Shown here piece by piece: positions 6,334 to 8,651 of a DNA stretch of 64,000 bases. Both the position numbers and the translations under genes were made by a program. The stretch is taken from assembly GCF_003334405.1 (NCBI RefSeq), contig NZ_QOWM01000002.1. One strand, given 5' to 3'. This stretch comes from Escherichia coli. Lineage in GTDB: Bacteria; Pseudomonadota; Gammaproteobacteria; Enterobacterales; Enterobacteriaceae. The number at the start of each line of letters is the position of its first letter. Within the stretch, counting starts at the first letter, position 1. The notes under the pieces are model-generated. The model did no database searches. It was given only the letters and a program-made list of their open reading frames with translations, and was not told the DNA's origin.

Positions 6334-7995
6334 TTACTCTGCTTTTTCTTCGACGGGAGTTGTTGAGGTTAAGGGTGAAGTCAATGCCGCCAGTGAGCCG
6401 CCTGAAACGCCAATTTCATTGAGCAAGGAGTCAATCAGCGGTGCCTGTGTGCGGTAAGAGAGAGCGGCTGATAATGCTTGTTCCGCCAGGTTTCCGCCCC
6501 CCACATTACCCGTGTTTGCATCACCCGCAGCGCCGCCACGATTCAGACCATCGACCTGAATAATCTTGATACCGTCGATTGACTTCATCGGCTCAACGGA
6601 TTTCTCTATTACCGCAGGCAGCGCCTGCAACAAGGCCAGTTTGAATTTAAGGCTGGTTTGTTCATCAGAAAGTACGTTGATAGCATCGTTCAGCGCACGT
6701 TGTGCTTCTGCTTCCGCCAGACCCTTTTTACGTGTAGCTTCGGCTAACTCAACGATAGCCGCCGCCTGCATCTCTGCGGCTTCTTTTTCTGCTTTCGCCC
6801 GCACGGTCAGTTCAACCGCTTTGGTTTCTGCATCCTGCGCGGCAGCGATTAGGGCAACTTGTTTAGCACGATCGGCTTCGGCAGTCTGGCGAGTGGTTTC
6901 TACGTTTTGTTGGGCGCTTACCGCTTCTGCAAGTGCGAGATTAGCACGCGCTTCTGCCTGGGACTGTTGTTCCGATTTGGCGGCAATAGCGATCGATTTC
7001 GTCTGGTTAGCGATTTCGGTGACCTGCTGCTGTTCGATCTCTTTAATGCGAACTTCACGTTCAGCTTCAACCTTTCTTGAGCGGACGGCCTGTTCGCGGT
7101 CGATTTCTGTTTCCTGAATCTGTCGTTCAGCCAGAATTCGTGTCTGCTCTGCTTCACGACGACGTTCAGCTTCAAAAGCCGCAATACGTGCATTCTGTTC
7201 GGCAGTACGGGTTTTAACCTGCTGCTCCTGCTCAAGCGTCATAAACGCTTCTTGCTGTTCAATCTCCAGCTTGCGCGATAGCGCATCGCGATTTTTTTCA
7301 CGCACCGCAACTTCTACATCCTGTTCAACTTCGTTACGTTCGCGGCGACGGCGCTCTGTTTCCTGAGTCAGTTTGGTTAAACCTTCGGCGTCAAAGGCAT
7401 TGTTCGGATTGAAATGTTCTTTCGAGGTCTGGTTAAAGTTGGTAAGTGAAACGCTCTCCAGTTCCAGACCGTTTTTCGACAGGTCTTCTGCCACTGTATT
7501 TTGCACCCCCTGCACAAAGTTCTCGCGGGTATCCTGTAACTCATGCATGGTCATTTGCGCAGCTGTTGCACGGAGGGCATCGACAAATTTATCTTCAACC
7601 AACATACGTAAGTCTTCAGGCGACAGGGTGCGTTGCCCCAGCGTCTGGGCAGCGGTGGCAATCCCTTCTACTGAAGGTTTTACCCGCACAAAGAAAGCGA
7701 CTACTACATCGACGCGCATACGATCTTTCGTAATCAGGCTATCAATGGTTGAGCGGCTGACTTCCAGCTTCAGAGTATTCATATTGATGGGGATTATTTC
7801 ATGAAAGATCGGCATCACGATTGCGCCACCGCTCATTACCACTTTTTGCCCACCTAAACCAGTACGAACAAAAGCTTGCTCTGCCGAAGCGCGACGATAG
7901 AGCCTGGCGAAAATAATTCCAATAATAAACAGAATGCATACGGCAATAATTGCGGTAAACATCCAGGAGGGCACAGAATTAACAATATCATCCAT
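6334..7995 (-). CDS. yqiK: SPFH/band-7 (flotillin-like) membrane protein YqiK
   Basis: 553-aa ORF; N-terminal TM segment (WMFTAIIAVCILFIIGIIF), SPFH domain, long E/A/R/Q-rich coiled-coil region typical of flotillins. Confidence 0.9.
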   Translation of the reverse strand: MDDIVNSVPSWMFTAIIAVCILFIIGIIFARLYRRASAEQAFVRTGLGGQKVVMSGGAIVMPIFHEIIPINMNTLKLEVSRSTIDSLITKDRMRVDVVVAFFVRVKPSVEGIATAAQTLGQRTLSPEDLRMLVEDKFVDALRATAAQMTMHELQDTRENFVQGVQNTVAEDLSKNGLELESVSLTNFNQTSKEHFNPNNAFDAEGLTKLTQETERRRRERNEVEQDVEVAVREKNRDALSRKLEIEQQEAFMTLEQEQQVKTRTAEQNARIAAFEAERRREAEQTRILAERQIQETEIDREQAVRSRKVEAEREVRIKEIEQQQVTEIANQTKSIAIAAKSEQQSQAEARANLALAEAVSAQQNVETTRQTAEADRAKQVALIAAAQDAETKAVELTVRAKAEKEAAEMQAAAIVELAEATRKKGLAEAEAQRALNDAINVLSDEQTSLKFKLALLQALPAVIEKSVEPMKSIDGIKIIQVDGLNRGGAAGDANTGNVGGGNLAEQALSAALSYRTQAPLIDSLLNEIGVSGGSLAALTSPLTSTTPVEEKAE

Positions 7996-8021
7996 TATTA
8001 AATTTCCTTTTGATTAATAAA

Positions 8022-8651
8022 TTACAATATTTGGGGCCAGGGATTATTTTCCGCCAAATATCGCGTTGCAGAAAGTCGGCAAATAATTAACACTTTGTCT
8101 CCTTTAGTGAAAATTTTTCCTTCTTCAGGTTCCAGTAGTAAATAATGTATTTGGCCAAATTGATCGGTGAGTTTTCCTTCGCAGGGATTACCTGAAGTGG
8201 CTTGATGACCGGTAATTAACGCCATGCTACCAATATATTCTTCTTCTGTAATAGCTGAACTATGGTCGCGTGGAATCCAGGGCGCAACTATTTTACCGGT
8301 ATAATGCACCGCAATAATCGTAAACAGTAAACTGACAGGAACCACGAACAGGTTCGACAGTGGTGATTGCCAGACCATGATGCAGGCATGCTGCAACAGG
8401 ATGCCAATAAGACCAAAAAAACCAGCCAGTAAGCAGAGAACGACGAGAGCTGGCAATCTTCCAATATTGAGATAATGAAGTGCCTGGCTAATATGACCTG
8501 TGGTTATAGAATCATAATGGTCAAGATGTGCATCAAGAGCACCGGAGAGCATGTGACCGCAGATAAGCGCAAAAATTTCTAACAGGCCGATCAACAGTAC
8601 AAAGGAAATAGCGAAAAGATAAGGGGTGTTATAGTCGGCGAATAAAATCAT
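8022..8651 (-). CDS. yqiJ: NfeD-like inner membrane protein YqiJ (partner of SPFH protein)
   Basis: 209-aa ORF with multiple hydrophobic helices and a C-terminal soluble domain; 26-bp gap to yqiK start, same strand (operon). Confidence 0.85.

Follow-up and report, generated by a model that had tools for sequence, protein, structure and literature searches.

What does a flotillin do in a bacterial membrane, and what does it need the small membrane protein encoded next to it for? This question is raised by yqiJ and yqiK, the two minus-strand open reading frames (ORFs) listed at positions 6334-8651 of a 64,000-nucleotide stretch of Escherichia coli DNA (contig NZ_QOWM01000002.1, assembly GCF_003334405.1; hereafter the window). 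An initial annotation, made from the sequence alone, had described them as an operon for a polytopic NfeD-type protein and a band-7/SPFH protein. The data assembled here indicate that yqiJ-yqiK is probably an operon for a bacterial flotillin, YqiK, which would form a cytoplasmic cage with its dedicated membrane partner, YqiJ, and serve as a membrane-stress module.

The operon and the NfeD-like/flotillin pairing have been known since 2009, because Hinderhofer et al. 2009 placed yqiJ-yqiK in an 'NfeD2-SPFH2' operon class together with yuaF-yuaG(floT) (PMC2636767). The same study noted that these partners have little sequence similarity to NfeD, determined the structure of the YuaF C-domain and reported NMR shift assignments for the C-terminus of YqiJ (PMC2636767); later papers repeat the NfeD-like/flotillin description (PMC10434171). 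For the window itself the operon matters little, and the points that were tested agree with the literature. What is added is a clearer statement of membership, namely that YqiJ shares the fold of NfeD proteins and is not a member of their sequence family, together with a number of side observations. The wider value lies in the fact that, of the two SPFH/NfeD-type pairs that the best-studied bacterium has, this one is understood least, at a time when cage structures exist for HflK/C, QmcA-YbbJ and the eukaryotic flotillins.

A two-gene transcription unit

Over 3.7 kb, the region matches E. coli K-12 MG1655 with 100% identity; in that strain, RefSeq labels the product of yqiK 'flotillin family protein' and that of yqiJ 'OB-fold-containig protein'. 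Each gene is preceded by its own Shine-Dalgarno sequence (Table 1). A scan of the minus strand between yqiJ and yqiK revealed neither promoter-like nor terminator-like sites, and a strong hairpin followed by a T tract occurs only after yqiK; therefore, the layout fits a two-gene transcription unit. The minus-strand operon with a 26-bp gap that was initially proposed is thus borne out by the ORFs, by the spacer with its Shine-Dalgarno sequence and by the terminator scan. Upstream of yqiJ, the promoter scan of the minus strand detected nothing resembling a sigma-70 site. The GC content of yqiJ in K-12 is 42.4% (GC3 38.6%) versus 50.4% for yqiK.

YqiK is a flotillin-family protein

Two Pfam domains define YqiK: Band_7 (PF01145, E 2.1e-18) and, towards the C-terminus, Flot (PF15975, E 6.4e-41), the model of which is covered completely (1-124/124). 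Hydropathy reveals a single hydrophobic segment, N-terminal and spanning residues 4-36, which AlphaFold2 (AF2) models as a helix of residues 10-39. Since acidic residues precede this anchor and two arginines follow it, most of the protein is predicted to lie in the cytoplasm, and the same orientation has been predicted before (PMC10434171). Between residues 200 and 420, glutamate, alanine, arginine and glutamine make up 60% of the sequence and proline is absent; this long helical region presumably forms the wall and roof of a cage.

Word-indexed homologue searches gave close enterobacterial relatives only, and as a consequence the AF2 model of YqiK was built on a 10-sequence alignment and the NfeD profile discussed below is shallow. 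The monomer model has a mean predicted local distance difference test score (pLDDT) of 66.7, with about 80-85 in the SPFH core and in a 128-residue helix (200-327), followed by further helices at residues 339-441 and 444-471. When this model was compared with the PDB by Foldseek, the top four matches were the flotillin-1/2 chains of the two flotillin cages that have been solved (9L3G, 9BQ2), with 415-468 aligned columns at 17-21% identity, ahead of prohibitin, stomatin, HflK/C, major vault protein and QmcA. It is from this list that the solved relatives used to reason about the assembly (9bq2, 9l3g, 7wi3 and 8z5g) were taken. A profile of YqiK relatives run against all PDB sequences likewise has flotillin-1 as its best match (9bq2_B, 8.6e-7, over the SPFH region); the single YqiK sequence found nothing there, and the PDB searches turned up no solved chain close to either YqiK or YqiJ.

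By these sequence and fold comparisons YqiK is a flotillin-family SPFH protein. It is not a FloT orthologue by the NCBI standard, because it scores 86.3 bits against the NCBIfam FloT equivalog NF058507, for which the cut-off is 700. Its initial description as a band-7/SPFH protein with a long coiled coil rich in glutamate, alanine, arginine and glutamine agrees with the Band_7 and Flot matches, the composition and the Foldseek result.

The helical region is also where YqiK varies in length. Alleles from E. coli, Shigella, E. albertii and Salmonella span 518-575 aa, and the differences are all in-frame indels within the helix at about residues 275-425 (window 6673-7170), with none in the transmembrane (TM), SPFH or C-terminal parts. 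They amount to -35, -30, -26, -13, -9, -4, +5, +10, +13, +16 and +9 residues, and several insertions are exact duplications of 5-16 residues, such as AEKEA or AERRREAEQTRIL. Tandem Repeats Finder reported no repeat in K-12 yqiK that would account for these indels. Such variants are rare, the gene being exactly 1662 bp long in 54 of 60 complete E. coli genomes drawn as a spread sample. The in-frame length variation of the helix provides a concrete mutational handle.

YqiJ has the fold, not the sequence signature, of NfeD

Hydropathy distinguishes three hydrophobic segments in YqiJ, and the AF2 model is confident (pLDDT 93.5). The only Pfam matches are YqiJ_N (residues 8-115) and YqiJ_OB (residues 139-198). 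An acidic loop between TM1 and TM2 (residues 31-67) holds two short helices in the model, and lysine plus arginine counts over 97 homologues predict an N-out/C-in topology. The structure prediction that had been proposed as a check on the C-terminal OB fold returned a five-stranded barrel that, among solved structures, is most closely related to the C-domains with which NfeD proteins bind their partners; the fold is thus NfeD-like.

At the level of sequence the outcome is different. Pfam NfeD (PF01957) does not match YqiJ even at E<=10, and among the 97 family members it matches none at E<=0.001 and one at 0.05. A profile of the YqiJ family retrieved no NfeD chain from the PDB at E<=10, the single YqiJ sequence retrieved nothing from the PDB sequences, and NCBIfam has no entry matching YqiJ. 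The PDB matches that the family profile did give, a TM segment of the nicotinic receptor and an SH3 domain, were at chance level and were discarded. Profile-profile comparison by hhalign aligned the YqiJ family with YbbJ in register over the last TM helix, the linker and the OB domain, with a probability of 10.5% (E 0.0029), in a comparison for which the YbbJ alignment is shallow, its members all being at least 58% identical. Because there is no sequence-level match and the profile probability is only 10.5%, binding of YqiJ to its partner in the manner of NfeD would be an extrapolation from the fold. The initial domain assignments therefore stand in part: YqiK falls in Band_7/Flot, and YqiJ is polytopic, with three TM helices, an OB barrel and an NfeD-like fold, but lies outside Pfam NfeD and is placed by fold only.

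With 209 aa and no domain besides YqiJ_N and YqiJ_OB, YqiJ contains no ClpP-like protease domain and is not a long NfeD protein. This bears on the idea that YqiJK is the regulator or adaptor of a membrane protease, comparable to HflK/C, which cages FtsH, or to PH1510, a long NfeD protein that cleaves its stomatin partner PH1511. Such a role is improbable, since YqiJ itself lacks a protease domain, no protease gene occurs in the conserved neighbourhoods examined, Foldseek ranks flotillin chains above HflK/C chains as matches for YqiK, and HflK/C faces the periplasm, whereas most of YqiK is predicted to lie in the cytoplasm (PMC10434171).

Several features of the membrane part of YqiJ were noted along the way. 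A glutamate inside TM1, E25, is conserved as E in 93 of the 97 homologues and is Q in the other four; P67, G83 and G141 are invariant in the family; and the cytoplasmic loop of the family is strongly acidic, with a mean of 5.7 aspartates plus glutamates versus 1.4 lysines plus arginines. In a protein that acts only as an adaptor, one would not expect a conserved carboxylate to be buried. Together, the TM glutamate and the acidic loop hint that YqiJ may have an ion-, lipid- or voltage-sensing role, triggering or gating the flotillin cage, and the glutamate offers a concrete target for mutation.

The pair is conserved and under purifying selection

The association of the two genes extends far beyond the enterobacteria. 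Among nine distant loci, with YqiJ homologues of only 28-37% identity, there are eight in which a YqiJ gene and then a flotillin gene are read from one strand, separated by -14 to +89 bp. In six of these (L003, L005, L008, L009, L010 and L011) a gene with both Band_7 and Flot domains (562-600 aa) directly follows the YqiJ homologue; in L004 a cut ORF downstream is 69% identical to YqiK; and the eighth pair is carried by phage Phosso (L013). The sole distant YqiJ homologue without a neighbouring flotillin is L012 (ENA scaffold_9770, 617-3769), which is followed by an 803-aa protein with a TraG-D_C domain and a weak TrwB_AAD_bind match and is preceded by an ORF that is not flotillin-like. Starting from YqiK instead, a YqiJ-family ORF lies directly upstream in 15 of the 16 IMG/VR loci whose sequence extends that far. 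By adjacency and co-orientation, the NfeD-SPFH operon partnership thus holds across taxa.

Within the species, yqiK was matched in 5425 of 5426 complete E. coli genomes, with a query coverage of at least 80% in 5404. The ratio dN/dS of nonsynonymous to synonymous substitution rates, calculated for K-12 versus representatives of three other phylogroups, is 0.02-0.04 for yqiK and 0.03-0.10 for yqiJ. Judged from this near-universal occurrence and from dN/dS values of 0.02-0.10, both are real genes, not chance ORFs, and are under purifying selection.

These values also bear on the view that yqiJK is a silent, decaying remnant without a current function in E. coli. Very low or undetectable native expression and the lack of deletion phenotypes (PMC2636767, PMC10434171, PMC6788730) would be in line with it, as would the low GC content of yqiJ (42%, GC3 39%) and the disrupting alleles known from several strains: yqiK with an IS1 insertion (2 of 60 genomes), YqiJ cut to 120 aa (573 contigs) or 204 aa, and a Salmonella frameshift. 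Decay is nevertheless very unlikely, for dN/dS remains at 0.02-0.10 in both genes across phylogroups despite dS values of up to 0.32, yqiK is covered for at least 80% in 5404 of the 5426 genomes, and the indels of the YqiK alleles are all in-frame and confined to the helical region.

The alleles concerned are varied. Several strains have an IS1 element within the operon or next to it. The 120-aa N-terminal fragment of YqiJ is named from O145:H28, and the 204-aa form in an O157:H7 strain results from a premature stop; the records of the disrupted alleles are E. coli genomes H1, H20 and H35, proteins P0120, P0119 and P0107, and L034 845-1459. In Salmonella Enteritidis, a yqiJ frameshift is without phenotype (PMC6137255). 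At least some lineages can therefore do without the pair.

The two genes do not evolve in step. Synonymous divergence (dS) from K-12 in EECO1006, CFT073 and O157:H7 (L032-L034) is 0.19-0.32 for yqiK and 0.06-0.17 for the adjacent yqiJ, the largest jump being that of EECO1006 (0.32 versus 0.06). This suggests a recombination boundary between the genes or old allelic lineages at yqiK. Over longer distances, it is the YqiJ protein that evolves much faster than YqiK: at L003 and L008 the flotillin is 78% identical and its partner 32-37% (32% at L003). Locus L003 (JGI Ga0226661_10001334, 2259-9927), from an uncultured relative, has the pair between a gene for a CopA-like P-type ATPase and a merR(cueR-like)-nfeD(ybbJ-like)-band_7(qmcA-like) cluster. 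Both SPFH/NfeD-type pairs are therefore less than 4 kb apart there; in K-12, yqiJ-yqiK and qmcA-ybbJ occupy separate chromosomal loci.

The surroundings in E. coli

The initial annotation had drawn attention to type I toxins and a fimbrial cluster directly beside the operon. These neighbours are indeed present in K-12: one flank holds ibsD/ibsE and two SIB_RNA matches, the other glgS followed by the fimbrial genes yqiI/H/G. The features of the locus are collected in Table 1.

Table 1. Coordinates of yqiJ-yqiK, its protein domains and adjacent elements in the window
Feature	Position	Strand	Description
yqiJ coding sequence	8022..8651	-	209 aa; RefSeq WP_000599926.1; inner-membrane protein with three TM helices and C-terminal OB barrel
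YqiJ membrane domain	8277..8636	-	Residues 6-125; TM 6-30, 68-94, 100-125 (AF2, hydropathy)
YqiJ C-terminal OB barrel	8046..8237	-	Five-stranded, residues 139-202; NfeD-like fold, predicted cytoplasmic
yqiK coding sequence	6334..7995	-	553 aa; RefSeq WP_001311137.1; flotillin-family SPFH protein
YqiK N-terminal membrane anchor	7900..7968	-	About residues 10-32; hydropathy and AF2
YqiK SPFH / Band_7 domain	7420..7881	-	Residues 39-192; Pfam PF01145
YqiK long helical region	6673..7398	-	About residues 200-441; helix 200-327, break, helix 339-441 (AF2)
YqiK flotillin C-terminal domain	6406..6780	-	Residues 406-530; Pfam Flot
yqiJ Shine-Dalgarno GGAG	8661-8658	-	6 nt ahead of yqiJ ATG
yqiJ-yqiK spacer	7996..8021	-	Exactly 26 bp, TTTATTAATCAAAAGGAAATTTAATA
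yqiK Shine-Dalgarno AAGGA	8009-8005	-	Inside spacer, 9 nt ahead of yqiK ATG
Intrinsic-terminator-like hairpin and T tract	6281..6317 (hairpin 6317-6291)	-	Terminator scan; 10-bp stem; 17 nt past yqiK stop
SIB_RNA matches	5584-5733, 5959-6108	+	hldE-yqiK spacer
ibs ORFs	5659-5718, 6034-6093	-	19 codons each; one per repeat copy

It could be imagined that the operon, the Ibs/Sib loci and the yqiGHI fimbriae form one envelope-targeted island, given that the genes are physically adjacent in K-12 and that the yqiK terminator hairpin belongs to the Sib/Ibs repeat unit. This is exceedingly unlikely. CFT073, O157:H7 strain 7409 and EECO1006 share the order ubiK-glgS-yqiJ-yqiK-ibs-hldE, in which ubiK is not separated from glgS by fimbrial genes and one or two ibs copies are present (one in CFT073). 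Fimbrial or ibs genes adjoin the pair at none of the nine distant loci and at none of the viral ones, and the transcription units are separate: yqiK is followed by a terminator, and glgS lies on the other strand. A functional link of the pair to its toxin and fimbrial neighbours, which vary within E. coli, finds no support in the comparison of loci.

The hldE-yqiK spacer (window 5584-6317) is built of two copies of a Sib/Ibs repeat unit of about 375 bp (5584-5939 and 5959-6316), and a repeat family within it (6160-6316 and 5783-5939) is 92% identical. The sibD/ibsD copy ends, on its outer side, in the terminator hairpin of yqiK, a second occurrence of which lies at 5939-5915. On the other side, the strain-variable fimbrial cluster yqiI/yqiH/usher/ygiL (window 9163-14672) has a low GC content of 0.32-0.46, and in K-12 an IS2 element (about window 13444-14672) interrupts its usher gene.

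Neighbourhoods in other bacteria and in huge phages

Elsewhere, the pair keeps different company. A PspA_IM30 gene lies directly upstream of it at two bacterial loci (L008 and L011, where a conserved gene of about 167 aa comes before it) and at two viral ones (L015 and L026); linkage of PspA to flotillin and YqiJ/YuaF has been published (Ravi et al. 2024, mSystems; PMC11237479). Downstream of the pair, in phage Phosso and in 10 of 18 IMG/VR loci, a PF10112 (XpaC-like) gene is followed by a TelA gene. These neighbours and the carriage by huge phages point to membrane damage and phage infection as the conditions under which a phenotype may be looked for.

Sinorhizobium phage Phosso, an isolated phage of 469 kb, carries the block YqiJ-flotillin-XpaC-TelA at 355001-359181 of record PV764938. 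The IMG/VR loci named for the XpaC-TelA cassette are L016, L018-L022, L027, L028 and L030; contigs with the pair measure 240-543 kb, and several of those with the cassette 380-543 kb. The phage flotillins are 41-51% identical to YqiK, and a conserved 174-aa ORF is found about 1 kb upstream of the block. No paper on this YqiJ-flotillin-XpaC-TelA cassette of huge phages was found in the literature searched. Short 'phage' records of 1.5-2.8 kb, about 90% identical to yqiJ/yqiK, were set aside as they look like fragments of host DNA, and a search for related loci that started from protein P0237 alone yielded no viral ones. A known defence system or phage family was ruled out as well, PADLOC and PHROGs having no family for either protein.

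On this basis it may be ventured, tentatively and at rather low odds, that the YqiJ-flotillin pair is the portable core of a membrane-stress cassette moving between bacteria and huge phages, in which YqiJ, in view of its conserved TM glutamate and acidic loop, would be more than a passive adaptor.

A working model

The preferred reading, a flotillin cage with a membrane partner, draws on flotillin (9BQ2/9L3G), HflK/C and QmcA-YbbJ (8Z5G) as templates. By analogy with these, the long helices of YqiK would mediate its homo-oligomerisation to a dome or cage, which would lie on the cytoplasmic side of the inner membrane and enclose a membrane patch. YqiJ would sit in or at this patch, anchored by its three TM helices and with its OB domain in the cytoplasm, where the latter may bind YqiK and stabilise the oligomer, as NfeD stabilises the FloA oligomer in Staphylococcus aureus (PMC11222466). 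The PspA and XpaC-TelA neighbourhoods elsewhere suggest that the module would serve membrane-stress maintenance rather than housekeeping. This last step is the weakest of the model; such a role would fit the very low expression and the lack of a phenotype in laboratory E. coli.

A number of points weigh against this picture. The putative oligomer and the putative contact between YqiJ and YqiK are extrapolated from solved relatives. The YqiK model is of moderate quality only (pLDDT 66.7), with residues 34-64 and 473-553 below 50, and YqiJ has no sequence-level match to NfeD, the profile-profile probability being 10.5%. No PspA, TelA or other stress gene lies beside the operon in K-12, and some strains have truncated yqiJ alleles or an IS1-disrupted yqiK. 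Native YqiK is barely detectable, and deletion of yqiK or of all four SPFH genes together has no growth or biofilm phenotype (PMC10434171, PMC6788730, PMC2636767). Finally, overexpression of yqiJK left the uptake of 3-hydroxypropionic acid (3-HP) unchanged (PMC13124679).

For acrD, mliC and pgaABCD, the same 3-HP study reports that overexpression raised the uptake and deletion raised the titre (PMC13124679). Other reports on the operon are scattered: yqiJK was up-regulated on overexpression of NarQ in one study, YqiK overexpression is reported to enlarge cells (PMC2636767), and one study, as cited in PMC10434171, describes effects on motility and ampicillin resistance.

A related proposal comes from S. 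aureus, where FloA-NfeD is thought to be an ATP-independent holdase confining and stabilising unfolded membrane proteins. YqiJK has the same make-up, a flotillin-type SPFH protein and an NfeD-fold partner in one operon, and in the published model NfeD binds the flotillin 'tentacles' and favours client capture (PMC11222466). FloA, however, belongs to another SPFH subgroup (SPFH5) than YqiK and FloT (SPFH2) (PMC2636767), clients of YqiK would be proposed by analogy, and an E. coli yqiK deletion has no oxidative-stress or aminoglycoside phenotype, only the hflKC deletion having one (PMC10434171). That YqiJK is such a holdase is conceivable, if unlikely. None of the four alternatives weighed here, that is, a protease adaptor, a holdase, an envelope island or a decaying remnant, is favoured over the flotillin cage with its partner.

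Relation to known systems

Binding of an OB domain to an SPFH partner is known for PH1510-C and PH1511. Physical NfeD-SPFH binding is also established for FloA-NfeD (PMC11222466) and, as summarised in PMC13086221, for QmcA-YbbJ (PDB 8Z5G). From these cases we infer that the OB domain of YqiJ would bind YqiK.

Among the nearest relatives described, yuaF-yuaG(floT) of Bacillus subtilis differs from the E. coli pair in several respects: YqiK reaches 86 bits against the FloT cut-off of 700, YqiJ belongs to Pfam YqiJ_N/YqiJ_OB and not to NfeD, and the E. coli locus has no third gene like yuaI. The other pair of an SPFH protein and an NfeD-fold protein in the same genome is qmcA-ybbJ, and here, too, the SPFH domain is predicted to be cytoplasmic (PMC10434171). 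A cage of 26 QmcA-YbbJ heterodimers has been solved, as summarised in PMC13086221 (PDB 8Z5G), and this is the best structural precedent for the placement of YqiJ with YqiK. The gene order is reversed, however, the SPFH gene coming first; QmcA is a stomatin-type protein of 305 aa without a Flot domain and with only low-complexity similarity to YqiK; and YbbJ is a true PF01957 member, to which the YqiJ profile aligns in register with a probability of only 10.5%.

Among solved structures, the best profile and fold matches for YqiK are the eukaryotic flotillin-1/2 (9BQ2, 9L3G), which have the same order of domains: SPFH, long helices and a C-terminal region. In contrast to the E. coli system, the eukaryotic flotillins have no NfeD partner (PMC11222466) and form a hetero-oligomer of two paralogues instead of being encoded, like YqiK, by a single gene; the identity is 17-21%. 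Finally, the CesT/Tir-PspA-flotillin-YqiJ/YuaF operons (PMC11237479) bring together the same two types of protein, a YqiJ-type protein with three TM helices and one built in the order TM, Band_7, coiled coil and Flot, and L008 and L011 reproduce this arrangement with PspA directly upstream. The K-12 locus differs from them in having no genes for PspA, CesT/Tir or an AAA+ ATPase. It corresponds to the two-gene 'abbreviated operons', consisting of flotillin and YqiJ/YuaF only, that were described in the same study (PMC11237479).

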